Assembly (NCBI RefSeq): GCF_054482525.1
Contig: NZ_CM137006.1
Length of the DNA stretch: 64,000 nucleotides
Strand: one strand, 5' to 3'
This document shows, one piece after another, positions 8,534-25,091 of this stretch. The translations under genes and the position numbers were made by a program. Within the stretch, counting starts at the first letter, position 1. The number at the start of each line of letters is the position of its first letter. Below the pieces are notes generated by a model. The model did no database searches, had not been told where the DNA came from, and saw nothing but the letters and a program-made list of their open reading frames with translations.

Positions 8534-9004
8534 ATGCTAAGTAACGATATTCTGCGCAGCGTGCGCTACATTTTGAAAGCCAATAATAATGACCTGGTGC
8601 GTATTCTGGCGCTGGGTAATGTCGAAGCCACCGCGGAACAGATCGCCGTCTGGCTACGTAAAGAAGACGAAGAGGGTTTTCAGCGTTGTCCGGACATTGT
8701 TTTGTCTTCCTTCCTCAATGGCCTGATTTATGAAAAACGCGGCAAGGATGAGTCTGCTCCGGCACTGGAGCCGGAACGTCGCATTAATAACAACATCGTG
8801 CTGAAAAAATTACGCATCGCGTTTTCGCTGAAAACCGATGACATTCTGGCGATCCTCACCGAACAGCAGTTCCGCGTTTCGATGCCGGAAATTACGGCGA
8901 TGATGCGTGCACCGGATCATAAAAACTTCCGCGAATGCGGCGATCAATTTTTACGTTATTTTCTGCGTGGACTGGCAGCGCGCCAGCATGTGAAGAAAAG
9001 CTAA
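8534..9004 (+). CDS. yehS: DUF1456-family protein
   Basis: Start chosen at MLSNDILRSVRYILK (156 aa, as in K-12 YehS). The ORF-track start at 8477 would overlap btsR. Confidence 0.88.
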   Translation: MLSNDILRSVRYILKANNNDLVRILALGNVEATAEQIAVWLRKEDEEGFQRCPDIVLSSFLNGLIYEKRGKDESAPALEPERRINNNIVLKKLRIAFSLKTDDILAILTEQQFRVSMPEITAMMRAPDHKNFRECGDQFLRYFLRGLAARQHVKKS

Positions 9005-9013
9005 GACGGGTAT

Positions 9014-9038
9014 GGCGGCCATGCGAAACATGGCCGCC
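9014..9038. terminator. bidirectional hairpin between the convergent genes yehS and yehR
   Basis: GGCGGCCATG-cgaaa-CATGGCCGCC forms a perfect 10-bp stem between two convergent stop codons. Confidence 0.6.
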
Positions 9039-9044
9039 GACAGA

Positions 9045-9506
9045 TTATTTCACTTCTTTAAAACCAGCGGCTTTCATCACCAGTTCCATTTGCGCCATAG
9101 TGATACCTTTTTTGGCATCTTCAGCAGAAACGTTGATTCCTGAAATACCCTGCAGGGCTTTAAAATCCACTTTTTCCATATCGATAGTCACGTTTTCCTG
9201 CGCGTAGGTATCGGTATAGGTTAATTTTTCTTCAACACCCGCGATATTTTTGTATTTGGCGCTTAACGGCTCAAGTGTCTTGGCAGCGTCTTCTTTGGTG
9301 GTTGCACCAATGGAGGCAAATTGAATTTTGGTTTCAGAAGATTGCTTAAGCACCTTGTCACCTTTGTAGACATAGGTAATGGCAATTTCAGTACCGTTCA
9401 GATTGGCGCTGAATTTTTTCGATTCTTCTTTGTCACCGCAGCCAGCAAGAGAGAAAACCAGAACAGATGCAACAACGAGGGAAAACAGCTTATTGAAAGC
9501 CTTCAT
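9045..9506 (-). CDS. yehR: lipoprotein (DUF1307)
   Basis: MKAFNKLFSLVVASVLVFSLAGC contains a lipobox. 153 aa, as in K-12 YehR. Confidence 0.9.
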   Translation of the reverse strand: MKAFNKLFSLVVASVLVFSLAGCGDKEESKKFSANLNGTEIAITYVYKGDKVLKQSSETKIQFASIGATTKEDAAKTLEPLSAKYKNIAGVEEKLTYTDTYAQENVTIDMEKVDFKALQGISGINVSAEDAKKGITMAQMELVMKAAGFKEVK

Positions 9507-9630
9507 GTAAAACTCCATTTTATTTAATCAAGAAACTGGTGACTCTCACCAGGGGCTATATAGGATATGCCTAATACCGTGGCGTGAGCAGTCCGGAACT
9601 GGAGTAGAACTCTTAGTAAAAAGCACTATT

Positions 9631-11631
9631 TCATCCTTGTTGCTGAAGCATGTGGAATAATTGTTCGCAAAGCAAAACACCGTTATTCATTGCTTCTACC
9701 CGTGCCTCGCTTTCTGTATTACAAAATTGTGCCAACACATGTGCCAGCCGATAAAAACCGACCGCGGTGAGGTCATTCGCCAGCAACTCTGCCTGACCAA
9801 TAGCACTCTGTTCCTGATAGCGCCAGCCGTTATGGAGCAGTTGAATAAGTAACGCCTGGCAGCGCATCAGCAACTGATGAGCGGTAGACGGCACAGGCAG
9901 AACGCTGGCAGAAGGTAGCGGTGCCACAGGCGCAGTTTCTGCGTCCAGCGCCCAGGCGCGGGTTTTGGTCATCATTACCCGTGGTTCCAGTGTCAATTGC
10001 CCCTCAACAAAACTGACAAAGCCAGAAACCAGACTCACGGGGTCGTCTGTGTGTTGCAAAAGTGCCGCCATGCGTTCAACGGCAAAAGGCGCGCTGGCTG
10101 AGGCTGGCAGTGATAAAGTCAGCAGATTATCTTCACCTTCGCCGCTGATTACCTGCGCATCCAGCGTCTGGCGGCTGCTATCCCAACCGAGTGAAATACA
10201 CTCAGCGACTGGCAGAATAAATAAGTTATCCACCTGATTAAGAGGCCGTATGCAGGCGGGGGGACGCTGGCGTAAATATTCCCGCAAAGCCACAATGCCC
10301 GACTGGCGCAATGGCGCGCTCAACATTTGCCAGGCGTCTGGCGACAGCGGCACAACGCTGCTTAAGCGGTTGCGGGTAGCTAACAACAGCTCGCCATCGG
10401 CACTGCGTTTTGCTGCTTGTGAAACAATTTGCCCACCTGCCAGTGCGCCAGCCAGAAAACTAAACAGCCGACGCGTCGCTGCCGGTGAGTTTTCCTGTTC
10501 GCTTCTCGGCCAACTACGCGAAAGATGCAAAATACTGCCAGTGTCGGGATCGGTAAACCAGATGCGTAAACCATAATGCTCAATATCCTGCCAGCAACGC
10601 ATACCTAAAGACACCAGCCGCAGATGATCAAGCTTTGCTTCTCCGGCAATGCCAGAGCCAACGACCGTGCGCCACGGCACAGGAGGAACTTCACCAACAC
10701 TGTCGCGCCGGGCCATCTCTTGTGCGCAATTTAATCGACTGTTTAATGCCGCAAGCTGACGTAAGCATTCTCCGACATGATAGTGGCTGGCGCGGGCGTG
10801 GAAGGCATCAACGCTGGCGCGCAGTTGCCGTAGCGATTCACTCACCCAGCGCCAGTTGCAGCGTTCCGCCGCTTGCTGCGCGCGGCTGAAAGCAGCCTTG
10901 TAATGAATAAGCGGCTGGCTGATGCCGCCAAGCCATAACGCCTGGCTTAATTGCTGAACATATTGACGACACGCGTCGCCCTCATCGTTGGCAAACGGAT
11001 CGTCAGATGATGTGACGTGTTCGCTGCGCATCTGCCAGATTAAATGAGTAAATTCCGCTTGCTGCGCTTTGGCCTGGACAAAGGCCTGTACTGCCAGTAC
11101 GACATGTTCGCAAAGTGTGCCGTCAATACAATCACAGCGTGCGAAACGAATGCTGCTGCGGGAATAAAAACGTACATCGCTCATCGGTAAGCGGGCAGAG
11201 GGAATTTCGCCCGGCGTACAGAACAACTCAATGGTGATGCCTTTAGCGACCAGTGTCTGTGCGCGTTTGCGGGTGGCATCGGGCAGGGTAGCCAGTTCTT
11301 CCAGCCAGATTGCCGGATCCCACTCTTCTTCTTTTTCCGTAGGCTGGGTGGTGGCGCAAAGTCGCTGATAACTTAAAACCAGCATCACGCGATGGCGGCA
11401 CATGCCGCTGGCCCCGCAGCTGCATTGAGCCTCTTTCAGTGCCTGACCGTTCGCCAGCTGGGTGCGGACACCGTCACTGAAGGTGGCGATTAAAGCGCCG
11501 TTCTCATGGCTGATTTCCGGGACGTTGCCATTTTCCAGTTCTTTAAGGCTGCGCTTAACAAAACCGGCATTGCTTAACGCCGTCAAAGCTTGTGGTGTCA
11601 GTTCTAATAATTCCGGCCGTAGTGAATTCAT
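9631..11631 (-). CDS. yehQ: SWIM zinc-finger protein, last gene of yehLMPQ
   Basis: Two CxC..CxH SWIM motifs (CSCGASGMCRH and CDCIDGTLCEH). The ATG overlaps the yehP stop (ATGA at 11628-11631), which suggests translational coupling. K-12 may annotate a shorter start. Confidence 0.85.
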   Translation of the reverse strand: MNSLRPELLELTPQALTALSNAGFVKRSLKELENGNVPEISHENGALIATFSDGVRTQLANGQALKEAQCSCGASGMCRHRVMLVLSYQRLCATTQPTEKEEEWDPAIWLEELATLPDATRKRAQTLVAKGITIELFCTPGEIPSARLPMSDVRFYSRSSIRFARCDCIDGTLCEHVVLAVQAFVQAKAQQAEFTHLIWQMRSEHVTSSDDPFANDEGDACRQYVQQLSQALWLGGISQPLIHYKAAFSRAQQAAERCNWRWVSESLRQLRASVDAFHARASHYHVGECLRQLAALNSRLNCAQEMARRDSVGEVPPVPWRTVVGSGIAGEAKLDHLRLVSLGMRCWQDIEHYGLRIWFTDPDTGSILHLSRSWPRSEQENSPAATRRLFSFLAGALAGGQIVSQAAKRSADGELLLATRNRLSSVVPLSPDAWQMLSAPLRQSGIVALREYLRQRPPACIRPLNQVDNLFILPVAECISLGWDSSRQTLDAQVISGEGEDNLLTLSLPASASAPFAVERMAALLQHTDDPVSLVSGFVSFVEGQLTLEPRVMMTKTRAWALDAETAPVAPLPSASVLPVPSTAHQLLMRCQALLIQLLHNGWRYQEQSAIGQAELLANDLTAVGFYRLAHVLAQFCNTESEARVEAMNNGVLLCEQLFHMLQQQG

Positions 11632-12764
11632 GACTGAAGATTCTCCGCAAGCCAGGTCGCCAGTTCGCCCGGCGTCATGGCGGCTATTTGTGCGCCGACA
11701 TTAACCAGCGCCTGGGCCGTATCGTGGTCATAGCAAGGTGTTGCGGTGCTATCGAGCGCCGCCAGTCCCAGTACTTTGATGCCGCTCTGGACACACTTTT
11801 TCACCTGATGCGTCAGTAATGATGATGAACCCCCTTCGTAAAAATCGCTCACGAGGATAATGACGCTTTTCGCTGGTTGTTCAATAAGTTGCCGACCATA
11901 TTCCATGGCACTGGCGATATTGGTTCCGCCGCCTAATTGCACTTTCATTAATAACTCTACCGGATCGGCAACGTCTGCCGTGAGATCAACCACGCTGGTG
12001 TCAAACGCCACCAGATGGGTACGAATACCGGGTAACTGCCATAAACAGGTCGCCATCACCGCTGAGTGGATCACCGAGTCCACCATTGATCCGCTTTGAT
12101 CAACCAGTAAGACCAGTTGCCATTGTTCACTGTGGCGCTTAATGCGGCTGTTAAAGCGGGGGGATTCGATATACAACTTGCCGTGTTGCGGATGCCAGTG
12201 TTGCAGGTTGGCGCGCAGCGTACTTTTGAAATCAAAGTTTCGCGCCAGTGGAATAAATGAGCGGCGACGGCGATCGCGGACACCAGAAAAAGCCTGACGA
12301 ACTTCCTTTGCCAGTCGCGCCATAATCTCTTCAACAACCTGGTGCACTATCCGGCGGGCGGCAGCCAGCACTTCGGGATTCATCAGATGTTTAGTGTGCA
12401 AAACGGCGCGTAGCAGGCTTTCAGAAGGCTGCATACGTTCCAGCACGTCGAGATTCGTCACCACATCTTCAATGCCGTAGCGCAGTACGGCATCGCTTTC
12501 CAGCCGCTCGATCACCTGTTGCGGAAACAGCGTGTGAATACTGTTGATCCACTTAGGGGTGGTGAGATTTGAGTCACCTAATCCACCGGAGCGTTCACCA
12601 CGCTGGAGCCGTTCAGGATCGCGCCCATACAGCCACTCCAGCGCGTGGTCTATCTGCCGGGCATTGTCATCCAGCCCACAAAGGGTCGTTTCTGCCGCTT
12701 CGCCAAGAATTAATCGCCAGCGATGTAGCTCACGGGTGGTCAGAAGATCGTTCAGTTCAGACAT
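11628..12764 (-). CDS. yehP: von Willebrand factor A (vWA) domain protein
   Basis: Start at MSELNDLLTT (378 aa, as in K-12 YehP). MIDAS-like motif LLVDQSGSM. The start overlaps the yehM stop by 8 nt. The ORF-track N-terminal extension to 12992 is rejected. Confidence 0.9.
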   Translation of the reverse strand: MSELNDLLTTRELHRWRLILGEAAETTLCGLDDNARQIDHALEWLYGRDPERLQRGERSGGLGDSNLTTPKWINSIHTLFPQQVIERLESDAVLRYGIEDVVTNLDVLERMQPSESLLRAVLHTKHLMNPEVLAAARRIVHQVVEEIMARLAKEVRQAFSGVRDRRRRSFIPLARNFDFKSTLRANLQHWHPQHGKLYIESPRFNSRIKRHSEQWQLVLLVDQSGSMVDSVIHSAVMATCLWQLPGIRTHLVAFDTSVVDLTADVADPVELLMKVQLGGGTNIASAMEYGRQLIEQPAKSVIILVSDFYEGGSSSLLTHQVKKCVQSGIKVLGLAALDSTATPCYDHDTAQALVNVGAQIAAMTPGELATWLAENLQS

Positions 12765-15036
12765 GGAAAACTCCCCAGTGTTGCAGCGATGCCAGTGCCT
12801 GCTGTTCGAGTTGTTGATGATGTGCAATGGCTTGCGGTGGACAATGCAACGGCATTTGCAGCGCTGAAACGGGAAGCTGTGCGAGCTGGTAATGCTCAAG
12901 CACCTGATGCGCCAGCGTCCCGCGTTCTCGTGGTGGTAGCCAGGCCATCGCCGCACGCAAATCGGGCAGGGCGTTAATAAAATCGTCGTCACTCAGTTGA
13001 TTTAAATGACTACTGAAACCGGCGATAAATGCCGGCTGACAGGCCAGTTGATGGCGGGCCAGCGCCAGCAAACCGTGCAGTGCCTCGCCGGATTGTGCCG
13101 GGGATAATTGCGCCAGCATCGTCAGCGCCGCTTCGGCACTGGCGTTGGGATGTTCCAGACGCATCAGTGCGCCAAGAGCCGCGCCGCGATCCAGCGCCGA
13201 GGCATGAATCGCCTGACTGCGGCGCTCAAGTAAGGCTACCGCCGCAGAAAGCGAAACGCCGGGTAAATTAACGCCGCTATGTAGATCGCGCAGGATATGG
13301 CAAAGCGCCTGCCAGCTATGCAGGTGAGCGTGAAACTCCTTTTCCTCCGGTCTGCCGTTGGATTCACACAGCCAGAGTGTGCGATCGATAGCCGCGCATA
13401 ACGTCGTCTGTAATATCTGCGCGCCTTGCATACCGCTAATTTCATCCAGCCGCCATAAGGCGTATAGCACTTCCAGCGCCTGGCCCATTTCGGCAAACTG
13501 ATTTTCCTGGGCGATTAATAATGTAAGTTGCTCCAGTAATTGTTGACTGAAGGACGCCAGACCCGCTAACGCCGCCTGGCTAAGACATGTGGTGATACTG
13601 CCGATTCCACCCGCGTCCAGCATATCGGCTTCTAATTTATTGCGTGCGGCTTCCTGGAGTGTGGCACCAAAGCAGGCGGCCTCAATTAATGCCGCATGTT
13701 GGCTAAGCGGGCGGGTTAATTTCCAGCGTTCTTCACCGTTGCCTGCAAGTGTCAGTGTACTTCCCTGCTGGCGCACAACCCCTGGGATCTCCAGTATTGC
13801 CAGCCGATGTAACACCTGACTTTGCGCTAGTCCATTGGGGTTAAAGCGATTTAAGGTAAGCTCCGCCGGAAGAGAGATTGCGGTACGTTCCAGTTCGCAG
13901 GTGACATCTTTTGGCAGAGGCGGTTGTGGCGTAGAAGGGGCAAGTTTACCGAATCCGTCACCCGCTAATGTGTCTATCAACGTTAGCAGAATCGGATCGG
14001 TATCGGGATGAATAACGCCGCGATAGCTCCACGGCAACGGCGCATTCAGGGCTTCTTTAATCAGCGAGCCTGCTATGGCATCCAGCCAGTCAGTGCGTAA
14101 CGGTAGTGTATGACCGCGCAACTGTGCCAGTGCCATCGCATGCAGATGAGCGGCAGCCATATCCGCTGTTGAAGCAGGCAAGTGGTGCTGGCGCAAACGG
14201 GTAAGAACCGTTTTCAGCAGTTGTTCACCTGCCTGCTGCAAGCCCCACCGCCAGCACCAGTTTTGCCAGACCGGGGCAGGCATACCGGAAAGGTATCCTG
14301 CCAGCACATCAAGGCGCTTTTCACTGTAGGGTGTGAGATAACAACCTGTAACGGCATCATCCAGTAAGAGCAATTCTGGCGTGTTAATTACCTGCGGACA
14401 TTCGCGCCACATTTTTGCCAGTGCCGGAGCGTGCCAGCCACCGCAGACAACTAACACGTCGCCATTATTTTGCTGCATCGCCCATCCAATCCAGCGGGCC
14501 ATAAAGGCTTCGCGCTGACGATTGAGAGCATCTCCGGGGGAGTCGCCCCGCAGTTGGGCAAAATAGTGCGCAAGTGCAGAGGGTAATGCAGTTTGCTGCC
14601 TTTCATCTTCGAACAAGTGATCCCACAGGGTGTCGCTGTTATCCATGCGGGTGGCACGCAGCAGCAAGGTCTGGCTTTCCTCTTGCGTATCAGGCGAATC
14701 GTCCTCTTCTTCACTCTGCGCCCAGCAAGGCAAATCGATGAAGTAAGTTTGTGCCTGAATACGACGAGCGGCTTGTAGCGCCTGCCACTCCGGCGAAAAT
14801 TCAGCAAATGGCGTCCAGGCACCACGCCCGGGGGCCGCACCGTCCTGATACTGGCAATAACTGTAAATAGCTACCGGAAGCTGGTGGGCTAACAACAGTT
14901 CGTCTACCCGGTCATTAAAATCAGCCGGGCCTTCAATCAACACATATCGTGGCCGCTGGCTTTCGATTAACGATTTCACCAGCCGGGCGCAGGCCGGACT
15001 ATGATGCCGGATGCCGACAATTAACGGCTCGCTCAT
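12757..15036 (-). CDS. yehM: large uncharacterised protein of the yehLMPQ operon
   Basis: Start at MSEPLIVGIRHHSPACARL (759 aa, as in K-12 YehM), preceded by an AGGAAA Shine-Dalgarno that contains the yehL stop codon. Confidence 0.9.
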   Translation of the reverse strand: MSEPLIVGIRHHSPACARLVKSLIESQRPRYVLIEGPADFNDRVDELLLAHQLPVAIYSYCQYQDGAAPGRGAWTPFAEFSPEWQALQAARRIQAQTYFIDLPCWAQSEEEDDSPDTQEESQTLLLRATRMDNSDTLWDHLFEDERQQTALPSALAHYFAQLRGDSPGDALNRQREAFMARWIGWAMQQNNGDVLVVCGGWHAPALAKMWRECPQVINTPELLLLDDAVTGCYLTPYSEKRLDVLAGYLSGMPAPVWQNWCWRWGLQQAGEQLLKTVLTRLRQHHLPASTADMAAAHLHAMALAQLRGHTLPLRTDWLDAIAGSLIKEALNAPLPWSYRGVIHPDTDPILLTLIDTLAGDGFGKLAPSTPQPPLPKDVTCELERTAISLPAELTLNRFNPNGLAQSQVLHRLAILEIPGVVRQQGSTLTLAGNGEERWKLTRPLSQHAALIEAACFGATLQEAARNKLEADMLDAGGIGSITTCLSQAALAGLASFSQQLLEQLTLLIAQENQFAEMGQALEVLYALWRLDEISGMQGAQILQTTLCAAIDRTLWLCESNGRPEEKEFHAHLHSWQALCHILRDLHSGVNLPGVSLSAAVALLERRSQAIHASALDRGAALGALMRLEHPNASAEAALTMLAQLSPAQSGEALHGLLALARHQLACQPAFIAGFSSHLNQLSDDDFINALPDLRAAMAWLPPRERGTLAHQVLEHYQLAQLPVSALQMPLHCPPQAIAHHQQLEQQALASLQHWGVFHV

Positions 15037-15046
15037 GCATCTTTCC

Positions 15047-16135
15047 TCACGGCAGGCGGTGGCGAGCTTGATAATAAGCCTGCCAGTGAGCTTCTTTATG
15101 TGTGGCGACGCGCTGTTCGAAGTAACGGCGCAGACGCGCGCGATCTTCTTCGTTATCTTTGACGATGGTTCCGGCAATACAGTCCACCAGGTCGGCAGGC
15201 TCCCCCGCGCGATTCGCTAAAAACCAGGCGCGGACACCCACAGCATGGGCCACGTTAACGGCTTCAGCGGTGGACATAATCGCTGTCAGTGTATCCATTG
15301 ACGTTTTCTTTTCGCCGTTGGCACGCAGATCGCGGAACGTGCGCACCAGTAATTCCAGTACCGTGTCAGGCACTTTATGCGGAATACCGCTATGGGCCAG
15401 CAAACGCGCCGAAGCACTGGCGACCAGTTCCAGCTCCTGGGCGAAATCCATAATCGGAAAGACAGTTTCAAAATCGAAGCGACGCTTTAGCGCAGCACTC
15501 ATTTCATTGACGCCGCGATCGCGGGTATTGGCAGTGGCAATAATATTAAAGCCTTCTCGCGCATAGAGCTGACTGGCTTCACCAGTGAGTTCCGGCACCG
15601 TCATTACCCTGTCAGAAAGCATACCTAACAGACAGTCTTGTACTTCCAGCGGTGTACGCGTTATCTCTTCAAAACGGACAATTTTGCCGTCGCGCATTCC
15701 CTGGTAAAGCGGGGCTGGGACCAGCGCTTCCGTTGACGGACCATGGTTGATAAGCAGGGCGTAGTTCCAGCCGTACTTGATTTGATCTTCAGTGGTAGAT
15801 GCGCCGCCCTGGATGGTTAACCCGGCATCGCCGCTAATAGCGGTTGCCAGTAATTCAGACAGGAGAGATTTTGCGGTGCCAGGTTCCCCCACCAACATCA
15901 AACCGCGCCCGGTTGCGAGAGTGACTAACATGCGTTCGACAGCGGAGGGGCTAATCACGACTTTACGGCTAATATTTTGTGCTTCGTCGCCAAGGATAAA
16001 AGCGCGGGCCGCAGGCAAACTTAACTGCCAACCTGGCGGGCAAGGTGCGTTATCATTTTGTTTTAATTTTGCCAGTTCATCGGCGTATAACACAGCGGCA
16101 GGCGGACGCTGCAGATGATTATTCTGCGGTGACAT
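15047..16135 (-). CDS. yehL: MoxR-like AAA+ ATPase
   Basis: Start at MSPQNNHLQ (362 aa, as in K-12 YehL). Walker A GEPGTAKS and Walker B/sensor region IVRFEEITRTPLEVQDCLLGML, typical of MoxR. Confidence 0.9.
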   Translation of the reverse strand: MSPQNNHLQRPPAAVLYADELAKLKQNDNAPCPPGWQLSLPAARAFILGDEAQNISRKVVISPSAVERMLVTLATGRGLMLVGEPGTAKSLLSELLATAISGDAGLTIQGGASTTEDQIKYGWNYALLINHGPSTEALVPAPLYQGMRDGKIVRFEEITRTPLEVQDCLLGMLSDRVMTVPELTGEASQLYAREGFNIIATANTRDRGVNEMSAALKRRFDFETVFPIMDFAQELELVASASARLLAHSGIPHKVPDTVLELLVRTFRDLRANGEKKTSMDTLTAIMSTAEAVNVAHAVGVRAWFLANRAGEPADLVDCIAGTIVKDNEEDRARLRRYFEQRVATHKEAHWQAYYQARHRLP

Positions 16136-16244
16136 ATATTCATCCCTGAAATGTATTAATGAAATAAACGATATTTTACGCGCAATAAATGTTTGGCGCA
16201 TTAGTTGTTTGAGCGAAAAATATCTGGAAAGCAGATCACAGTAA

Positions 16245-16329
16245 ATAAAAAAACCTGCTGGTGAGGCAGGTTCTTTGATTTACTACTTTCAGGCCTAACA
16301 CCACGGCCTGTGCAACATCGTGTTCCAAC
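16245..16329 (-). ncRNA. orzO: Orz-type antitoxin sRNA (predicted), copy 1
   Basis: Minus-strand promoter TTGCAA-17-TATAAT (-10 at 16336-16341). Minus-strand intrinsic terminator: stem 16252-16258/16266-16272 followed by a U-run. The 5' 20 nt (16310-16329) are complementary to the zor 5' UTR (16476-16495) with 1 mismatch. Ends are predicted, and the O/P naming is arbitrary. Confidence 0.65.
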
Positions 16330-16335
16330 GAACGA

Positions 16336-16386
16336 ATTATAACCATCGGTGGACCCCGTTGCAATTAAGATAATGAGATTTATAAT
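16336..16386. promoter_or_regulatory. divergent back-to-back sigma70 promoters for orz (minus) and zor (plus) sharing one palindromic -35 hexamer
   Basis: TTGCAA at 16359-16364 is its own reverse complement. TATAAT sits 16 bp downstream on the plus strand (16381-16386) and 17 bp downstream on the minus strand (16336-16341). The same layout occurs in copy 2 (16945-16995). Confidence 0.6.
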
Positions 16387-16566
16387 CCTGACTGTTGGGA
16401 CGTTGCGCCGGATCGAACCCATTTCAAGTCCTGGCTACCGGACGGGTGGTGCCGCAGGTAGTGCCCTGATCCGGAGTGCAACATCGTGGTCCAACATACG
16501 TAAACCAGTATCGACAGGCAGTGTAAGGGTAAGGTGCTGGTGTTGCGCTCCTTAATAAGGAGAGCG

Positions 16567-16656
16567 AATGGACACGCTGACACAAAAGTTAACCGTGCTC
16601 ATTGCTGTACTGGAGCTATTAGTGGCTCTGTTACGGTTGATTGATTTGTTGAAGTA
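16567..16656 (+). CDS. zorO: 29-aa hydrophobic type I toxin peptide (Zor family), copy 1
   Basis: Hand translation gives MDTLTQKLTVLIAVLELLVALLRLIDLLK*, which I recognise as the ZorO toxin described in E. coli O157:H7. Shine-Dalgarno AAGGAG lies upstream, and a long structured 5' UTR is predicted from about 16393. Confidence 0.8.
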
Positions 16657-16680
16657 ATGGGCAAATTGAAACGCAACTAA

Positions 16681-16703
16681 GGGGGAAAACCGCTTCCCCC
16701 TTT
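16681..16703 (+). terminator. intrinsic terminator of zor copy 1
   Basis: GGGGGAA-aaccgc-TTCCCCC stem-loop followed by TTT. Confidence 0.7.
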
Positions 16704-16852
16704 AATAAAATGATTACATCTTCCATTAATTCACCCGATAACTTTTTTCATATTTATAAATTCATCGATTTTATAATCAACGTACTATTTGGCCGGGATG
16801 TGAATAATCATGGTGGGCTATTGGCGAAAAATATCTGGAAAGTAGATCGTAG

Positions 16853-16938
16853 AAAATAAAAGAACCTGCTGGTGAGGCAGGTTCTTTTATTTACTACTTT
16901 GATGTTAAGTTACTGATAGTGCAACATGGCATCTCAAC
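16853..16938 (-). ncRNA. orzP: Orz-type antitoxin sRNA (predicted), copy 2
   Basis: Same architecture as copy 1: minus-strand -10 at 16945-16950 and terminator stem 16861-16869/16877-16885. The 5' 20 nt (16919-16938) match the cognate UTR at 17085-17104 with 2 mismatches. Confidence 0.6.
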
Positions 16939-17176
16939 GAACGAATTATAACCACCGCTGGACCGTGTTGCAATTAAGATAATGAGATTTATAATCCTGA
17001 CTGTTGGGAAGTTGCGCCGGATCGAACCCATTTCAAGTCCTGGCTACCGGACGGGTGGTGCCGCAGGTAGTGCTCTGATCCGGAGTGCAACATGGCGACT
17101 CAACATACGTAAACCAGTATCGACAGGCAGTGTAAGGGTAAGGTGCTGGTGTTGCGCTCCTTAATAAGGAGAGCGG

Positions 17177-17266
17177 ATGGACACGCTGACACAAAAGTTA
17201 ACCGTGCTCATTGCCGTACTGGAGCTATTAGTGGCTCTGTTACGGTTGATTGATTTGTTGAAGTAA
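17177..17266 (+). CDS. zorP: 29-aa type I toxin peptide (Zor family), copy 2; peptide identical to copy 1 (one synonymous change)
   Basis: Hand translation is identical to copy 1 (GCT to GCC, both Ala). Assigning O or P to a given copy is arbitrary. Confidence 0.78.
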   Translation: MDTLTQKLTVLIAVLELLVALLRLIDLLK

Positions 17267-17289
17267 TGGGCAAATTGAAACGCAACTAA

Positions 17290-17312
17290 GGGGGAAAACC
17301 GCTTCCCCCTTT
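17290..17312 (+). terminator. intrinsic terminator of zor copy 2
   Basis: Same GGGGGAA-aaccgc-TTCCCCC-TTT hairpin as copy 1. Confidence 0.7.
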
Positions 17313-17387
17313 AATAAAGTAATATTCTATTAGTTGGTTGAATATATTCTGTAGTTTACGATTAAAAATTGCTATTACAGTTTCAGG

Positions 17388-17639
17388 TTATTCACCTCGT
17401 AATTTCCGCTCATCAATACACTCATCTCTTATATAAATCAACGCATCATTTATTAGCGGGTCAACATCCTCTCGATCACGTTGATGAAATGTTGGACGTA
17501 GCCGGAACCGTTCCAGTCGGTAAACGGAACCTGTAAATAATTCAGAGCATTTATGGATCTCAAGTCTGAAGGAAAACGGATCTTCAGGTACAGGGACCTC
17601 ATAATTGTAAATAGCGACCAGCTCTTTTTGCACGCTCAT
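17388..17639 (-). CDS. yehK: small uncharacterised protein between yehI and the zor/orz module
   Basis: 83-aa ORF co-oriented with yehI, at the position of yehK in K-12. K-12 YehK is longer as I recall, so the symbol rests on position only. Confidence 0.5.
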   Translation of the reverse strand: MSVQKELVAIYNYEVPVPEDPFSFRLEIHKCSELFTGSVYRLERFRLRPTFHQRDREDVDPLINDALIYIRDECIDERKLRGE

Positions 17640-17699: not shown

Positions 17700-20600
17700 T
17701 TAATGGAAAATGACGTCGGGTGCGCTTAACGCCTCACTCAAATCAAACACATCAAGTTCGGCAAAAGTGACAGATTTATTGTCACGGTATACATGAAGAG
17801 AACGGAAGCTCATTAGCGCTTTGCTATCAACATTGTAGTGGTTAAAACCGGATGAAAACTTAAGGACCAGCCGGTACTCGCCCAGGTCATAGACAAATGC
17901 GTTCTCATAGCCTGACTCCCAGCCTTTGTATCGCATTCCCATAAGTTGCCCAACGGTAGCAGATTTACCTTCCCAGCGATTCAAACTATTACTGGCTGAC
18001 TCGTCAGGCGTGAGCAGTACTGTGCGCCGTGCCAATTGGCGAAAAGGCGGCATAATTTCGTAATCGGCAAAAAGCTGTGCAAACTCACTGCGCATTTCTG
18101 CTGCCATTTCTAACGGGTGGGCAATGCCAATCAGAGCATCGGCAGGCAGGTCAATTGGCTCATCTTGCTCATTGCAGAACTCCCCCTCAGCGGCCACACG
18201 AAAGGCGTTGAGTAAACGACGCGGTTCATTTGCCGGATAAACACCCCATATTAATCGCTGAGTAACCAGACGGGTAAAGGGATGATTAACAAACAGAGAA
18301 TGAAAATCTGCCAGCGACCAGCGTCGGGTGGTGCGCAGGGCAGTTTCAAGACGCGGGAGCAGGTTTTTGCTCACCTGAGTGGCATCTTTTTTTAGCCCTT
18401 TTAGTCGGGCCAGTGCCTCGGGTGCTTTCAGTTGATCGTCATCGGCGCGCAACCGGGGAACGCTTTTCTGGCGAACGTTTTGCTGATCAAAGATAACCGG
18501 GTTAAGGTTTTCATCGAAGCGAACGGTAAATTGCCGTGGACCAAAATCAAAAATCAACGCCTGCGGATCATCAAGACCCAGTGTTGGGACTAATCTGTCC
18601 GCTAACTGTTCCTGGCTTAGCCCTCGATTTTCTGCGACCACCTGAAGAAATTCCGCCGCGTTATCACGTAAGGGGCGGGATTTCGCCCGTTGCGATATAT
18701 GATGCAGCTGTATCAGTGCCATATCATTATTCATCTGAGTAAGGATGTTCAGGCCGCTGACGGCACGGGCAGATTTGCCTTCCTGTGGCCAGGCAAGGAT
18801 CTGTGTTGTTAGATCCCGTGCCGTGCTTTCGTCGCCAAAGAGACTTAACGCCAGAAATGCCCAGTTGTCTTTTGCGGGAGCACCAGCTTGTTGCCACGCG
18901 GTGAAAAGATCCCAGGCAAAGGCTGCCAGCGTTTGCGGCTGGCAAAACGTTTTCAGCTGTTCCAGTCCGCTATAAAAACGTCCGCCCTGGGTAAAGCGCA
19001 GCATTTCGCCGATAATTTCCAGAGCGTCATCAGTAACAGGTTGATTATTCGTGATAAGGCGCGGCCTGGACCACATTGCCGGCTGCCAGAAATCAGGGGC
19101 TTTTGGAATGCGTGTCGGGTAAATCTCTATTGGACTCTGTTTAAGTAATTGCTCCAGGGCAGGCCATACATCTTTACGCTGCCAGCGGTTTGCCACGGTT
19201 TGCAGTAACTCGCCATGTCCCTGTTCGTAAAGTAAACGCAGGGCAAGTAATGCAGCTTCGCTATTATCGCTGGATTTGGTGAAGACAAGAGGGATAAGTG
19301 CAGTAGCTGTATGTTCCGGCCATTGTAAAATCCACTGGCGGGCCAGATCTCGCTGCGCCGCGAAACGTCGCCAGACGCGGGCAACGGGCAGGGCCAGTTC
19401 GGTTGCGCCGAAATTTAAAATTAACGGAAATGTTTCTTTTGGACGATGTGAAAAAGCCAACAGCAGACCTGGTAGAGCATCCAATCCGAAGATACTGAGA
19501 AAATAGTCCTCACCCGCAGACAGATGCTTTTTCTCATTGATACGTAGCCAGAAAGTCAAAGCCATCTCACGCGGCAACTGCGCCAATAAATACAGGTTCC
19601 AGATACTCTTTTCCCGACGATAGCGTGAGTAGCTGTCATTTTCCCATATGTTAATTAACACTTCTACGTGACCGCTGTGAAGCGCCTGTTCTGCTAATTG
19701 AGCTTCCGGGGAGCTCCAGCCATTCATGATCTCTTCAACCCGCCCTGGGTAGTAATGCCACTGAACAATGAGTGAATTGCGTGCAGCATCCAGTTTTCCG
19801 GGGAGTATATAATTCAAAAACAGCCATACATCATCTCCAAAACCCAGCTCCTGTAGTACAACTCGTCCACTTTTTTGTTCCATGCGTTCCGCAAGAGATT
19901 CCGTGCTGAAATAACGGGCAGACGCAGTGGCGGCAAGCCTCTCTCGTTCGCCTGGTTGCCAGTAAACTTGCGGCGTTAATTCGAACGGTGCCAAATCAAG
20001 ACGTGGAACTGTCATTTTTTTCTTACTACGCCACGGTGGTGAAACGAGGATTTCAGGCATTTGGCTGTTATCGGTGCTATCAATAACCGTTTTGGACGGT
20101 GCCGATAAATAACTATTCAGCATTGCCCGGGCTTGAGTACTTAACCACGGCATCACCTCTTCTGCCAGTTGTGGCTGCGATGCCATCAGCGTTTGTAACA
20201 GCGTACGCCAGTATTCATCGCGTGCTTTTTGCTGTGCAGGCAGCTTTTTGTCTTCAATGATTGGATAACCAGGGCGCGCAGGTGGTTCTTTTAACGCCAG
20301 CAGTTCTGCTAATGCGGCGAGCGTCGCATGGGGGAAGTTTTTACTGTATTTAGCCACACGTTGCAGGCTGGGTTTGTTTTTATCAGCAACTAACAGCAAG
20401 GTGCGGATGACTTGCGGATGGTTAATTTGTACCAGCAGACTGCCGCAATCTTCTTTATGGGCATACATCGCGAGGCGCGGAACGGCTGCCAGTCCTTGTT
20501 CGCGCAAAAGGGCGGCGCAGGCCGCGTAGCCGAAGCGGTTTTCTTGTGACATGTAGCTGGCTTCGCGATCGCTAAATACGTCCAGGCCCCAGTATCGTTC

Positions 20601-21332
20601 GAGTTTTTTTACCGCCGTATTATCAGTAGCAACGACCTTTAACCACTCCTTTGAATGGAGACTTGACCGGGAGCTTTCAAAACTGGCGAGTTCATTGGCT
20701 ATTTCAGGTTTTTCCGGGAGGATCAGCGCAATAAAAGGACGGCGAATTTTGGGTATTCCTGGCAGTGCGGCAATGAGTTTATCGGCACAACGCTGCCAGC
20801 AACTTTCCTCTGCCAGCGACAGATGCTTACGCAAACGGAGATCGAAATCGTTATAGGTCGCGGAGCCATAACCGTAGCTATAGTCCTCGTCCTGATACTG
20901 CAAAGTGACGACCAGTGAGTCACTCTCATAACGCCGCGCAATGCACTGACGCGATATCACTACATCCGTCGCATATTCCAGCCCCTCTTGTTGCACGATT
21001 TCATCAAGTAACTGCTGGCTGTCATTTTGCGCGATACAGATCAGAGCCGCCATGGTAAGGGCTGGGATTGACGGTTTATGCTCGCCAGTCAAATTGATTG
21101 CCTGCTGGATGGCGGACTGCCACTCCAGTGAGCATTTATCATAATTCCAGGTGATATTTTCCTTCTGGCCTGCTTGTTGTAGTAATTCATCTCCCAATGT
21201 CTGGATGAGACTTCCAGTGATAACGGACACTGGTTCGCCCGGCCAGCGACGATGACTGAGCGGCGTTTTGCCTTTTTTATATTTCAGTTCCAGTTGGGCG
21301 TTATCCGCCAGCCACGGTAATTCCTTGTCCAT
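17700..21332 (-). CDS. yehI: 1210-aa DUF4132-type protein, paralog of MolR
   Basis: Same length as K-12 YehI. It shares long conserved blocks with the upstream 1249-aa ORF, for example FGPRQFTVRFDE and LFADYEIMPPFRQL. Confidence 0.9.
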   Translation of the reverse strand: MDKELPWLADNAQLELKYKKGKTPLSHRRWPGEPVSVITGSLIQTLGDELLQQAGQKENITWNYDKCSLEWQSAIQQAINLTGEHKPSIPALTMAALICIAQNDSQQLLDEIVQQEGLEYATDVVISRQCIARRYESDSLVVTLQYQDEDYSYGYGSATYNDFDLRLRKHLSLAEESCWQRCADKLIAALPGIPKIRRPFIALILPEKPEIANELASFESSRSSLHSKEWLKVVATDNTAVKKLERYWGLDVFSDREASYMSQENRFGYAACAALLREQGLAAVPRLAMYAHKEDCGSLLVQINHPQVIRTLLLVADKNKPSLQRVAKYSKNFPHATLAALAELLALKEPPARPGYPIIEDKKLPAQQKARDEYWRTLLQTLMASQPQLAEEVMPWLSTQARAMLNSYLSAPSKTVIDSTDNSQMPEILVSPPWRSKKKMTVPRLDLAPFELTPQVYWQPGERERLAATASARYFSTESLAERMEQKSGRVVLQELGFGDDVWLFLNYILPGKLDAARNSLIVQWHYYPGRVEEIMNGWSSPEAQLAEQALHSGHVEVLINIWENDSYSRYRREKSIWNLYLLAQLPREMALTFWLRINEKKHLSAGEDYFLSIFGLDALPGLLLAFSHRPKETFPLILNFGATELALPVARVWRRFAAQRDLARQWILQWPEHTATALIPLVFTKSSDNSEAALLALRLLYEQGHGELLQTVANRWQRKDVWPALEQLLKQSPIEIYPTRIPKAPDFWQPAMWSRPRLITNNQPVTDDALEIIGEMLRFTQGGRFYSGLEQLKTFCQPQTLAAFAWDLFTAWQQAGAPAKDNWAFLALSLFGDESTARDLTTQILAWPQEGKSARAVSGLNILTQMNNDMALIQLHHISQRAKSRPLRDNAAEFLQVVAENRGLSQEQLADRLVPTLGLDDPQALIFDFGPRQFTVRFDENLNPVIFDQQNVRQKSVPRLRADDDQLKAPEALARLKGLKKDATQVSKNLLPRLETALRTTRRWSLADFHSLFVNHPFTRLVTQRLIWGVYPANEPRRLLNAFRVAAEGEFCNEQDEPIDLPADALIGIAHPLEMAAEMRSEFAQLFADYEIMPPFRQLARRTVLLTPDESASNSLNRWEGKSATVGQLMGMRYKGWESGYENAFVYDLGEYRLVLKFSSGFNHYNVDSKALMSFRSLHVYRDNKSVTFAELDVFDLSEALSAPDVIFH

Positions 21333-24300: not shown

Positions 24301-25091
24301 CGCAGTCGAACGTCAAAGGGGGTAACACAATGTGCATGGTTTAATAATGGCTGAAAAGTAATGTGTATGCTTATTCTGTGATAAGTGCAATCGAACGAGA
24401 TATATTGCATGGCAATAAACATATCCACGGCAAATTCTAGTCCGTAGACATAGACAATTTCATCCATGAGTTCAGGGCATTCGTCCCAGAATTTACGTGA
24501 AACCAGAACAACCTGTACAGCCAACGCAGCAGGAGAAAGTGGACCATTAGCGAGAGCTTCATTGATATTCTGCTGCCAGTTAGCAGAACATGCACTGAAA
24601 TCGTATGTTGTTATTTTTCCTGATAGATTATGAATATCCTGACCTAAATTCATAAGGAGGCTGTCTTGTGGTTCGCTTACAGCATCCCCAGGAAAACGTC
24701 GGGAAGGTAAGGCCTCCTGAGACTTTTTCTCCGATAGATGGATAGTGGAATCATCTGTCAGCCACGGGCATGGTGTCTCAGCAGGTTCAGCAACCATACT
24801 TTGGTCAAATACGACTGTGGTTTCTGCCACGCCAGTTGTATCTACTTCGATCGTTTCTATTTTGATTGCGGGTTGGGATGGCGAAGATAATTCTTCCACA
24901 TACCCCTTCTTCACCTTCTCCGCAATCAGCTTCAGTCCCGCTTTTTCCGCCGCTGCTGCATCCGCAAAGCTTTTTACCTGGTTTTGCCCTTTGGTGCCAA
25001 CTTTTCCCCAACAGATATGCAACTCGTTTCCCTGTTGCTCCACCGCCCAGAATTTATGTGATTTTTCGTCCTGAAAGATAAAGTGCCTCAT
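21342..25091 (-). CDS. molR: 1249-aa WGR-domain plus DUF4132-type protein (intact here; split pseudogene in K-12 as I recall)
   Basis: N-terminal WGR-like motif (KFWAVEQQGNELHICWGKVGTKGQ). It is an uninterrupted ORF at the position of molR/yehH. Confidence 0.85.
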   Translation of the reverse strand: MRHFIFQDEKSHKFWAVEQQGNELHICWGKVGTKGQNQVKSFADAAAAEKAGLKLIAEKVKKGYVEELSSPSQPAIKIETIEVDTTGVAETTVVFDQSMVAEPAETPCPWLTDDSTIHLSEKKSQEALPSRRFPGDAVSEPQDSLLMNLGQDIHNLSGKITTYDFSACSANWQQNINEALANGPLSPAALAVQVVLVSRKFWDECPELMDEIVYVYGLEFAVDMFIAMQYISFDCTYHRISIHITFQPLLNHAHCVTPFDVRLRKHLALAEETLWQRCVDKFITALPDIPPVQQPMVALMLPERPEIAEEIARRLLEQKNIQTVEWLKLVVQESSLLKALESYCAYDLFNDYYHGCIWNVTVLQEQGIAGIARFAPYAYADLCGSILAEINHPQALMLLIRVSGKTKRCHERMTKACAAFPHTALAALAELLAQKEENSWRIMLMTMLISQPALAEQVTPWLSTPAVAVLKACLQQLTQPSNHACADLLPAVLVSPPWLSKKKKSVIPVLDLTPLSLESCCTLTETAEKEIHARHRWHAHQIDIGQKEDIQNYLARLGFNRWNNGQYMKAPDAAIDLWQRGHYSALISEFKTFWHSYQREWQLYMLATLPIEKTAQAWNVLSKEPHVGVEFVMTHLQLTGLQGFIHSFSRYPQEALPVAQYFAAIELAPLIARAFNKLKTLRQDARTWLLKYPEHAITGLLPSALGKSGEAQDNARAALRMLTENGHQPLLQEIARRYNQPEVTDAVNALLALDPLDNHPTKIPTLPAFYQPSLWNRPVLKASAQSLPDSALQHLGEMLRFHQEEALYPGLLQVKDACTADSLAEFAWDLFTAWQTAGAPSKESWAFTALGVLGNDDAARKLTPLIRAWPGESQHKRATVGLDILAAIGSDIALMQLNGIAQKLKFKALQERAKEKIADIAESRELTVAELEDRLAPDLGLDDNGSLLLDFGPRQFTVSFDETLKPFVRDVSGSRLKDLPKPNKSDDESQANDAVNRYKLLKKDARTVAAQQVARLESAMCLRRRWSPENFQLFLVEHPLVRHLTRRLIWGVYSAENELLACFRVAEDNSYSTADDDLFTPPEGDISVGIPHVLEISPTDAAAFGQLFADYELLPPFRQLDRNSYALTETERNASELIRWAGRKCPSGRVMGLANKGWIKGTPLDAGWIGWMIKPLGRWSLIMEIDEGFAVGMSPAELSAEQILSKLWLWEGKAESYGWRSNSTQEAQLSVLDAITASELINDIEALFE

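Follow-up and report, generated by a model that had tools for sequence, protein, structure and literature searches.

What kind of machine do the genes yehL, yehM, yehP and yehQ encode, and do these four genes make up the whole of it? They lie on the minus strand of the window (i.e., the whole stretch of 64,000 nucleotides that was analysed) as yehL (15047-16135, MoxR-class AAA+ ATPase, 362 aa), yehM (12757-15036, DUF5682, 759 aa), yehP (11628-12764, CoxE-type vWA protein, 378 aa) and yehQ (9631-11631, double-SWIM protein, 666 aa). The yehL stop TGA (15049-15047) constitutes the first letters of TGAGGAAAG, as read from the sequence, and the ATG of yehM at 15036 is preceded, 7 nt away, by the GAGGA of TGAGGAAAG; the intergenic gap is 10 nt. 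The overlap between yehM and yehP is 8 nt long, within ATGTCTGA, and that between yehP and yehQ is 4 nt long (ATGA). Direct reading thus bears out the open reading frames, their limits and their tight coupling as given in the initial annotation. All its motifs (GEPGTAKS, FEEITR, DQSGS and two CxC..CxH fingers) were located as well, and the Pfam matches agree with them well above chance. About 80 nt past the yehQ stop, a consensus scan gives a candidate terminator-like hairpin (9536-9552, minus strand), likely to be the end of the operon.

YehL matches AAA_5 (1.6e-34). Its Walker A motif GEPGTAKS corresponds to residues 83-90 (15889-15866) and its Walker B-like motif is RFEEITR, where FEEITR corresponds to residues 155-160 (15673-15656). 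Neither these motifs nor TANTRDRGVNEMSAALKRRF change across 69 YehL homologues. Identity to beta-proteobacterial homologues is ~75%, and dN/dS of yehL is 0.01-0.04. The MoxR AAA+ assignment is thus upheld by the AAA_5 match and by intact AAA+ motifs. YehP matches VWA_CoxE (3.3e-70) and has a complete MIDAS, i.e., DQSGS (residues 222-226, 12101-12087), GGGT and SDF, unchanged in 52 YehP homologues. YehQ matches SWIM in two stretches (4.1e-08): finger 1, CSCx5CRH, spans C70-H80 (11424-11392) and finger 2, CDCx5CEH, spans C166-H176 (11136-11104), the Cys and His of both being unchanged in 38 homologues. The vWA and SWIM assignments are supported in the same manner by Pfam and invariant motifs. 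The AlphaFold2 model of YehQ (pLDDT 87, pTM 0.82) shows also a four-helix bundle, a beta-rich domain and a C-terminal helical bundle. With ~35% identity to its beta-proteobacterial homologues, YehQ has the lowest conservation among the four.

YehM, described at first as an unknown of 759 aa, is not featureless, since a TIKI-superfamily N-domain is recognisable by AlphaFold and HMM; as regards an established function, none was found. YehM matches DUF5682 (6e-97), and its AlphaFold model comprises a confident N-terminal alpha/beta domain (residues ~1-245, coordinates ~14302-15036) and an alpha-solenoid formed by the C-terminal ~500 residues. The invariant residues of the N-domain are R10, H11, E35, H51, E83, D101, R175, E176 and H202; among them H11, E35, R175 and H202 are unchanged in 86 YehM sequences, with identity down to 28%. 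The matches of YehM to the models PF04187, PF01963 and PF05139, weak and all under gathering score, coincide in register along the R-E-x-x-M...GGxH segment. These weak but consistent HMM matches, together with the confident AlphaFold model, place the N-domain and its invariant His/Glu/His/Arg as a predicted member of the TIKI/ChaN/TraB/erythromycin-esterase superfamily (TIKI1/2, TraB/PrgY, GumN, ChaN, erythromycin esterases, RRSP and HopBA1). The likeness concerns: (i) the parallel-sheet alpha/beta fold; (ii) the His after strand 1 and the Glu after strand 2; (iii) the R-E-x-x-M helix and the GGxH strand end, which complete the His/Glu/His plus Arg pattern. Unlike RRSP, YehM has no second catalytic Glu two residues ahead of the first His, R10 being adjacent to H11. 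Unlike the superfamily, its domain is fused to the long alpha-solenoid and partnered with an ATPase, and its activity is a predicted one. In some lineages, YehM and the vWA protein form one polypeptide: YehM-YehP fusions fall into three separate 50%-identity clusters, and for one of the three the fusion was confirmed in its genome.

Of the four-gene unit initially proposed, the genes and their coupling stand, and the completeness does not: the upstream DUF4132 genes, yehI and a molR-like gene, belong to it too. The molR-like gene (21342-25091, minus strand, 1249 aa) is intact in the present strain and encodes an N-terminal WGR (5.4e-18), a long variable middle and a C-terminal DUF4132 (4.4e-50). 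The old gene name molR means «molybdate metabolism regulator». Its DUF4132 paralogue yehI (17700-21332, minus strand, 1210 aa; DUF4132, 4.9e-47) has no WGR and starts 9 nt past the molR-like stop; the two proteins are 37% identical. One to three DUF4132 proteins are encoded in line with yehLMPQ in ~80 genomes and in Bacillus and Streptomyces plasmids. The set DUF4132 + AAA_5 + DUF5682 + VWA_CoxE + SWIM is found on one strand in Variovorax, in distant metagenomic or genomic relatives with a YehM identity of 31-35%, in the great majority of 84 loci (the window copy included), in a Bacillus mycoides plasmid and in a Streptomyces plasmid. In nearly every complete locus, the yehL homologue is accompanied by a collinear DUF4132 gene. 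Five collinear, tightly coupled genes are common to Proteobacteria, Actinobacteria and Firmicutes. Besides the molR-like protein, most partner proteins from other phyla have a WGR; yehI and some partners have none. Since the genes around the cassette change with every genus (127 Pfam families for 103 neighbours, the commonest in 4), the client is probably inside the cassette.

In E. coli, the yehLMPQ region occupies one fixed locus in 5186 of 5426 complete genomes (~96%), presence meaning that at least 80% of positions 9000-17000 of the window are kept (from the yehS 3' end to zor-orz, yehLMPQ inside). yehI is found in 5222 of these 5426 genomes, mostly at 90-95% DNA identity, and the molR-like allele of the present strain, with at least 80% query coverage, in only 154. 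For one strain pair, identities are 99.2% (YehL), 97.2% (YehM), 89.5% (YehI) and 74.1% (MolR). MolR alleles within E. coli have 26-52% identity in residues ~100-250 and ~500-650, and 90-100% identity to other E. coli alleles in residues 700-1249. The two hypervariable blocks of MolR, HVR1 and HVR2, assort independently (three alleles), and the variable patches of YehI are localized in the N-terminal half. In E. coli, the DUF4132 proteins are thus mosaic and hypervariable in their N-terminal halves, and the ATPase is almost invariant (YehL ~99%). It must be noted that molR hypervariability may come from a relaxed constraint or from an exchange between paralogues, and not from selection.

The dN/dS values are 0.01-0.15 for yehL, yehM, yehP and yehQ, within Escherichia and against Klebsiella, and 0.01-0.19 when yehI is included; the cassette genes are under purifying selection. 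It is highly improbable that the locus is what is left of a horizontally acquired cassette, silent, decaying and functionless in E. coli today. H-NS occupies the intergenic region ahead of yehL, and an hns stpA mutant has raised levels of yehL and yehM (PMC3686432). Such silencing would suit a remnant, as would the disruption of molR in K-12, the pseudogene state of yehI in E24377A and of the yehK-like ORF in the present strain, the many truncated YehM and YehQ clusters of the protein database, the loss of the operon in Shigella sonnei lineages 2 and 3, and a G+C content of 54-56% for LMPQ vs. 48% for the window. However, the low dN/dS, the catalytic motifs (all intact), the preserved translational coupling and the ~96% retention are opposed to decay. 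Control by H-NS and by BglJ-RcsB, which activates the molR promoter (PMC3950696), is typical of accessory genes.

As in NorQ-NorD, CbbQ-CbbO, CoxD-CoxE and RavA-ViaA, a MoxR-class AAA_5 gene adjoins a complete-MIDAS vWA gene; the genes are translationally coupled like those of MoxR/vWA remodelling pairs, and YehP falls in a CoxE-type vWA family, as in CoxD-CoxE. Moreover, an AAA_5 ATPase, a vWA protein and a protein of ~1200 aa recall CobS/CobT/CobN. The latter likeness counts for the main rival explanation, which we regard as rather unlikely: a chaperone dedicated to cofactor insertion or to assembly, like CoxD-CoxE, NorQ-NorD or CobS-CobT (chelatase). In this case, the client remodelled by YehL and YehP might be the large DUF4132 protein, acting as a CobN/BchH-like subunit, and YehM, through its ChaN-like domain, would be a binder of haem or of a metal and not a hydrolase. 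The best family of YehP is indeed VWA_CoxE, and haem-binding ChaN is the family closest in sequence to the YehM N-domain; YehP also matches the putative cobaltochelatase model TIGR02442 weakly (5.5e-4), with a score of 18.5, far under the cut-off of 779. The characterised MoxR-vWA pairs in PMC9976466, PMC7159879 and PMC3893208 are all maturation factors. The old name of molR goes in the same direction, as do, as a weak hint, the yehM mutations listed for copper-evolved E. coli lines (PMC12409786). On the contrary, unlike NorQ-NorD-type pairs, yehLMPQ has no adjacent client enzyme genes: a candidate target enzyme never adjoins, and the neighbours change with the genus. The cassette differs from these pairs also by three more conserved partners (DUF5682/TIKI-like, double SWIM, DUF4132) and by the Walker B of YehL, which is Glu-Glu (RFEE) and not the canonical Asp-Glu, YehL being the name-giver of its own MoxR subfamily (PMC3893208). 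Besides, the DUF4132 proteins have no CobN/BchH-type Pfam match, blocks of 26-52% identity in one species are unexpected for a housekeeping client, and patchy distribution, plasmid carriage and H-NS silencing are a poor fit.

WGR recognises DNA ends in PARPs, and SWIM is a DNA- or protein-binding zinc finger. A further explanation is a stress or repair machine associated with nucleic acid or with the chromosome: WGR and SWIM would direct the complex to DNA or RNA that is damaged or unusual, where the MoxR-vWA engine would remodel a bound protein or strip it off. The wide occurrence of WGR, the two SWIM fingers with invariant Cys/His, the highly conserved engine and the near-universal presence in E. 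coli are consistent with this explanation, which is nonetheless improbable: yehI and some partners have no WGR, repair genes are not linked to the cassette loci in the neighbourhood survey, H-NS silences the operon in laboratory conditions, S. sonnei lineages 2 and 3 carry a deletion of the operon, the reduced-genome strain DGF-298 has had it removed, and a generic DNA lesion would not call for a hypervariable recognition region.

The reading that we prefer is a self-contained machine which uses ATP for remodelling and licensing, with one variable subunit in charge of recognition and another subunit that is a hydrolase. yehLMPQ would be its conserved «engine», and the whole a self-contained cassette of five components, horizontally mobile, i.e., YehL, YehM, YehP, YehQ and one or more large DUF4132 proteins (molR-like, yehI). 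By analogy with NorQ-NorD, RavA-ViaA and Rea1, the hexameric ring of YehL would hold YehP, the MIDAS of YehP would grip an acidic residue of the client, and ATP hydrolysis would remodel the latter. In Rea1/Midasin, an AAA_5 ring and a MIDAS domain pull assembly factors off pre-ribosomes; the AAA_5 family, the MIDAS grip on a partner, the pulling by ATP hydrolysis and the large alpha-solenoid proteins alongside are the common points. Midasin, a eukaryotic protein, carries its six AAA modules on a single giant polypeptide, whereas the cassette parts are separate bacterial proteins, for which a ribosome link is not indicated. The mechanics expected here are those of MoxR/vWA pairs, and in NorQ-NorD the MIDAS is required for target activation and dispensable for ATPase binding (PMC9976466). 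The co-encoded WGR-DUF4132 protein would be the client or sensor; the ligand recognised by its hypervariable region and by the WGR and SWIM modules would be variable, and probably foreign or related to nucleic acid. YehM, a putative TIKI-type peptidase or esterase, would be the output, licensed by the MoxR-vWA step. That ChaN is a haem-binding protein, not a proven enzyme, argues against YehM as a hydrolase. With such a client or sensor and such a licensed output, the most likely role would therefore be surveillance or conflict (mobile elements, phage or stress signal), not housekeeping-enzyme maturation. The whole explanation (five-component cassette, yehLMPQ engine, DUF4132 client/sensor, YehM output and surveillance role) is given slightly less than an even chance; the conflict or surveillance role taken by itself is plausible but unproven, and is proposed tentatively.

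Four MoxR-vWA ternary conflict systems, of VMAP, iSTAND, FtsH and beta-propeller types, were described by Kaur et al. 2020 (PMC7159879). The cassette resembles them by a MoxR-vWA couple with extra dedicated components, a patchy distribution, a CoxE-like vWA with an N-terminal helical domain, a possible peptidase output and a variable component beside a constant engine. It differs from them in that the vWA has no fused variable effector domains, the variation being inside the DUF4132 partner. yehLMPQ as one of these four systems was rejected, their defining third components being all missing (PMC7159879). The bpMoxR model gives 18.4 bits vs. a cut-off of 27, and SWIM, DUF4132, YehL and TraB have no mention in Kaur et al. 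2020 (PMC7159879).

The conflict role is favoured by the patchy, cross-phylum, partly plasmid-borne distribution, by H-NS binding upstream of yehL and by a hypervariable partner beside an almost invariant engine. Against the role, the neighbours of the cassette loci are ordinary housekeeping genes, with no defence island found there, PADLOC models have no match in the six proteins (matches among the neighbours are scattered and paralogue-like in look), and the cassette is near-universal and position-fixed in E. coli and essentially absent from phage records, which is unusual for defence systems. No classic toxic effector (nuclease, TIR, pore-former) and no variable effector domain is present in the cassette. 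Literature searches found no published function of yehLMPQ, in agreement with the initial annotation.

The type I toxin-antitoxin module initially noticed at the upstream edge is real: Rfam, repeat and ORFs identify it as the known zor-orz, in two tandem copies (16213-17311) between yehK and yehL. The copies sit in a 609-nt tandem direct repeat. The zor toxin ORFs (16568-16657 and 17177-17266, plus strand) are identical, hydrophobic and 29 aa long, and the OrzO-P antitoxin RNAs (16247-16322 and 16858-16931, minus strand; Rfam RF02083) reach 91.9 and 90.2 bits vs. a gathering threshold of 60. Most E. coli are known to carry zor-orz between yehI and yehL, MG1655 being without it (PMC2887945); zor-orz is a separate module outside the MoxR-vWA machine. 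The yehK-like ORF (17286-17639, minus strand) is also outside the conserved cassette. It is annotated as a pseudogene with an internal stop and contains an 83-aa ORF (17388-17639); YehK (105 aa) occurs in Escherichia loci only.

The limits of yehL (15047-16135), yehM (12757-15036), yehP (11628-12764) and yehQ (9631-11631), all on the minus strand, are exactly those of the RefSeq annotation, and the tight coupling claimed for these genes in the initial annotation is present. The yehL stop lies inside the yehM Shine-Dalgarno (TGA followed by GGAAAG, the GAGGA so formed being placed 7 nt before the yehM ATG); the yehM/yehP overlap, i.e., the common sequence ATGTCTGA, and the yehP/yehQ overlap at ATGA can both be read directly in the sequence. 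All the motifs that had been quoted are found, and the assignments as MoxR, vWA and SWIM proteins correspond to Pfam matches of YehL with AAA_5 (PF07728; 119 bits vs. a cut-off of 22; 1.6e-34), of YehP with VWA_CoxE (236 bits vs. 26.4; 3.3e-70) and of YehQ with SWIM (33 bits vs. 19.6; 4.1e-08; two stretches). YehM matches DUF5682 at 6e-97. The stretch 9000-17000 is 100% identical to that of E. coli strain 19KM1776. On the whole the observation is confirmed and its interpretation partly supported. The description as a four-gene unit holds for the coupling but not for the extent, since the conserved cassette also takes in the DUF4132 genes located upstream.

In the window these are yehI (17700-21332, minus strand) and a molR-like gene (21342-25091, minus strand, hereafter molR), which is intact, encodes a WGR-DUF4132 protein of 1249 aa and ends 9 nt before yehI; both lie upstream of yehL on the same strand. 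The gene order in Variovorax is WGR-DUF4132, AAA_5, DUF5682, VWA_CoxE and SWIM, and it is the same in relatives having just 31-35% YehM identity. A set of 84 loci was compared, i.e., the copy of the window, 80 genome loci from a YehM scan and three further loci (L002, L083 and L084). In nearly all those uncut by a contig end, one to three DUF4132 genes are collinear with the homologues of yehL, yehM, yehP and yehQ; every locus has yehP in the operon of yehL, two genes further downstream. The DUF4132 gene of Burkholderia comes after the SWIM gene. All five genes, in unchanged order, are carried by a Bacillus mycoides plasmid and by Streptomyces plasmids. With two peptide patterns, a scan of 185,579 species genomes gave 362 matching stretches, a number that is a lower bound. 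The neighbours of the cassette are unrelated between genera: among 103 flanking proteins (30 genera, two neighbours per side) 127 Pfam families were counted, the commonest of which (LysR) occurs four times. This conservation across taxa, together with the unrelated neighbours, indicates that the cassette is self-contained, ancient and horizontally mobile. A phage origin was considered and rejected, with one weak partial match in 50,697 phage records. One genome (GCA_022841245.1, locus L083, 3227-23468) contains a tandem pair of cassettes. DUF5682 and vWA are fused in the first, which has two DUF4132 genes; in the second, DUF4132 is replaced by a HEAT_2 (HEAT-repeat) protein and the SWIM-like protein is short. 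The solenoid partner appears exchangeable.

YehL is known in the literature as the namesake of one of the seven MoxR subfamilies, the sole form in which it is cited (PMC3893208). Its Walker A (GEPGTAKS), the RFEEITR segment and the sensor/arginine-finger stretch are invariant across 69 homologues. So is its Walker B (15656-15673, residues 155-160), which reads IVRFEE, with Glu-Glu and not Asp-Glu; this Glu-Glu form of the whole YehL subfamily is probably functional. The MIDAS of YehP is complete (DQSGS, GGGT, SDF) and invariant across 52 homologues. YehQ has two CxCxnCxH copies, whose residues C70, C72, C78, H80, C166, C168, C174 and H176 are invariant across 38 homologues. Its length varies markedly within Escherichia/Shigella (clusters of 623/624, 666, 671/672 and 709 aa). 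Truncated forms of YehQ are many (e.g., 501 aa with 547 members) and truncated YehM clusters are abundant too; some of them may be contig-end artefacts and others the result of lineage-specific decay. A +1 frameshift site was shown in yehP by reporters and mass spectrometry (PMC2790909). In the window this site (11891-11906, minus strand) reads ATG GAA TAT GGT CGG C; the Shine-Dalgarno-like GGAG, reported as stimulator of the shift, is gone and a Val is changed into Met, so that the conservation or function of the frameshift is open to doubt.

YehM had been taken as a 759-aa protein of unknown nature. No function is assigned to it in the literature, so that this part stands, but its N-terminal domain has a probable TIKI-type fold. 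At 50% identity the family falls into about 2,266 clusters, and in an alignment of 86 sequences R10, H11, E35, H51, E83, D101, R175, H202 and others are invariant. The AlphaFold2 model (pLDDT 93.7, pTM 0.90) has an N-terminal alpha/beta domain (about 1-245) followed by a helical rest, whose last 500 residues or so are HEAT/ARM solenoid-like. The N-terminal domain is an alpha/beta fold with a parallel sheet, as is characteristic of the TIKI superfamily. The proteins listed for YehM are ChaN and a TraB-family protein (9.6 each), HopBA1 (8.8), erythromycin-esterase-like proteins (8.4 and 7.8), RRSP (7.3), PMT (7.2) and EreC (7.1), all members of the TIKI superfamily according to the RRSP structure paper, in which the active site is made of two His, two Glu and a basic residue (PMC6254334). 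Among 34 YehM N-terminal domains, 11 match PF04187 («Tiki superfamily, ChaN»; best 6.2e-4), 1-2 match TraB_PrgY_gumN and one Erythro_esteras, all of them below threshold. Of 10 distant members, 8 have the PF04187 match over the R-E-x-x-M...GGxH segment, with an unchanged profile register. None of the Pfam curated thresholds is passed by the N-terminal domain (the best being PF04187, 20.3 bits vs. a cut-off of 27.7), PDB searches by sequence with full-length and N-domain profiles gave nothing meaningful, and whole-chain Foldseek gave no significant match; for these reasons the TIKI/ChaN/TraB/erythromycin-esterase fold is considered as probable, not proven. H11, E35, H202 and R175 are located at the strand ends and helix expected for this superfamily, and the invariance and placement of these four residues make YehM a putative TIKI-type hydrolase. 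YehM-vWA fusions occur in three separate clusters, one of which was verified in its genome, where there is no separate vWA gene. These natural fusions argue for a direct contact between YehM and YehP.

The DUF4132 domains of the window (17853-18542 and 21552-22241) share 50-79% identity with those of beta-proteobacteria. The invariant residues are R64, E66, R73, W75, H87, H142, Q156, D160 and R172 (alignment numbering), and the polar ones among them look like a candidate catalytic or specific binding site. PDB searches by sequence with YehI and the DUF4132 profile gave no meaningful relative. In the plasmid collection, close DUF4132 relatives accompany the cassette; those of Acetobacter and Fulvitalea, which are distant (about 27% identity), occur alone, without it.

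Within E. coli the genes are not equally conserved. Of 5426 complete genomes, 5186 keep at least 80% of the stretch 9000-17000, which contains yehLMPQ, most often with 95-99% identity, and yehI is found in 5222 of the 5426, mostly at 90-95%. The molR allele of the window reaches a query coverage of at least 80% in just 154 of these 5426 genomes; in the remaining ones about 61-64% is alignable, in three pieces. Between the window and strain E02, protein identity is 99.2% for YehL, 97.2% for YehM, 89.5% for YehI and 74.1% for MolR. Comparison with the E. coli loci L169, L170 and L171 places two hypervariable blocks of MolR at residues ~50-400 and ~500-650, the identity between alleles being 26-34% at ~100-250, 42-52% at ~500-650 and 90-100% at 700-1249. 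The MolR of E02 and that of E24377A are 92-98% alike in the first block and 34-62% in the second, thus the blocks assort independently. The dN/dS ratio is 0.01-0.04 for yehL, 0.06-0.11 for yehP, 0.10-0.15 for yehM, about 0.11 for yehQ, 0.14-0.19 for yehI and 0.2-0.34 for molR, values which indicate that the genes of the cassette are under maintaining selection. Synonymous divergence climbs towards molR (0.67-0.85 vs. 0.13-0.25 in most yehLMPQ comparisons, yehQ reaching 0.49), and the partner proteins hold old, shuffled allelic blocks. Strains also differ in how many DUF4132 genes they have and in whether these are intact: yehI is a pseudogene with an internal stop in E24377A (L169, 1-291), and strain 2015C-4136CT1 (L170, 784-6235) has a WGR fragment and two further DUF4132 genes at the locus. 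In Shigella sonnei lineages 2 and 3, yehM, yehL and zorO are deleted (PMC12795559). The G+C content is 54-56% for yehLMPQ (9631-16135), 50-51% for yehI and molR, 43.7% for the zor-orz region and 48.4% for the whole window, a contrast consistent with a foreign origin, of higher G+C, of the four yehLMPQ genes.

The cassette is of the MoxR-vWA type and has five components; one is a subunit for which a TIKI fold is predicted, another a DUF4132 partner that is hypervariable. It can be considered as secure that three dedicated partners, encoded in the same cassette, act together with a MoxR ATPase and a CoxE-type MIDAS vWA protein. In the NorQ-NorD system the client is bound by the MIDAS and remodelled by ATP hydrolysis (PMC9976466). 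CoxD-CoxE and NorQ-NorD are encoded beside the enzyme that they mature, whereas no recurrent enzyme gene adjoins the yehLMPQ cassette. By analogy with NorQ-NorD, and since nothing else is ever co-located, the client would most simply be a protein of the cassette itself. The main rival explanation is a cofactor-insertion or chelatase-like role: the CoxE affinity of YehP, the ChaN affinity of YehM and the old name molR speak for it, but any linked target enzyme is missing and the hypervariability would be left unexplained.

A near-invariant engine joined to a mosaic, hypervariable WGR partner follows the logic of the recognition systems of genetic conflicts, and the patchy, partly plasmid-borne distribution and the silencing by H-NS favour this reading further. 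It is weakened by several results. The six proteins match no family of PADLOC-DB v2 (E <= 0.01), and a classic toxic effector is lacking. An association with defence islands, which the initial annotation had raised, did not emerge: PADLOC gave 13 scattered matches, none recurrent, among the 103 flanking proteins of 30 genera, where Pfam found mainly housekeeping genes. Moreover, nearly every E. coli genome has the cassette, at one unchanging position. Finally, the MoxR-vWA ternary conflict systems of Kaur et al. 2020 are defined by a third component (VMAP, inactive STAND, FtsH or vWA-fused beta-propeller), and no such domain is present in any of the six cassette proteins (bpMoxR, 18.4 bits vs. 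27); the yehLMPQ cassette is not described in that work and falls outside its four ternary systems. With NCBIfam the six proteins gave just far-sub-threshold matches to GvpN, MadB, McrB and a cobaltochelatase model. The boldest reading, of low probability, sees in the cassette a new kind of immune system for surveillance inside the cell, gated by ATP and made of a sensor, a MoxR-vWA switch and YehM as TIKI-type protease. The hypervariable, modularly shuffled WGR-DUF4132 sensor would recognise a foreign or aberrant macromolecule, and the switch, aided by the SWIM protein, would turn this recognition into the activation of YehM.

YehL, one of the two E. coli MoxR ATPases, has given its name to a subfamily since 2006, yet is without a function; literature searches gave no functional study of the operon genes, as had been claimed, and no paper mentioning DUF5682. 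The present analysis (i) defines the true five-gene unit; (ii) predicts an active site in YehM (H11, E35, R175, H202); (iii) singles out the MolR-like protein as the part that varies and probably recognises the ligand. A surveillance role, if true, would be the first function for the YehL subfamily and would bring an enzyme of the TIKI fold into bacterial immunity; a role in conflict would mean a widespread immune architecture at a core position in the genome of E. coli, and a role in maturation a new class of clients for MoxR-vWA chaperones.

Upstream of yehL, H-NS binds between the genes, and expression of yehL and yehM is raised when hns and stpA are mutated (PMC3686432). BglJ-RcsB activates the promoter of molR, which is free of H-NS repression, and molR is disrupted in K-12 (PMC3950696). 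A phenotype has possibly been missed in K-12 because of this disruption and of the silencing of the operon; E. coli strains that have kept molR intact, in contrast to K-12, now allow a direct test of the function of the cassette.

A type I toxin-antitoxin module had also been placed at the upstream edge of the operon, and indeed OrzO-P RNAs and 29-aa ORFs lie between yehL and a yehK-like pseudogene. This zor-orz region (16213-17311) is a 609-nt tandem repeat whose two copies are 92-94% identical, each with an OrzO-P RNA (RF02083) above the Rfam gathering score and a hydrophobic 29-aa ORF on the opposite strand; the two toxins are identical. The position between yehI and yehL and the tandem layout agree with the published locus (PMC2887945). 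YehK was rejected as a sixth component, as it occurs in Escherichia only. The yehK-like ORF (17286-17639), interrupted by an internal stop, carries a pseudogene annotation, and the second zor-orz copy directly adjoins it at the 3' end; the insertion of zor-orz may have truncated yehK. Both repeat copies are closed by the hairpin AAGGGGGAAGCGGTTTTCCCCCTT.
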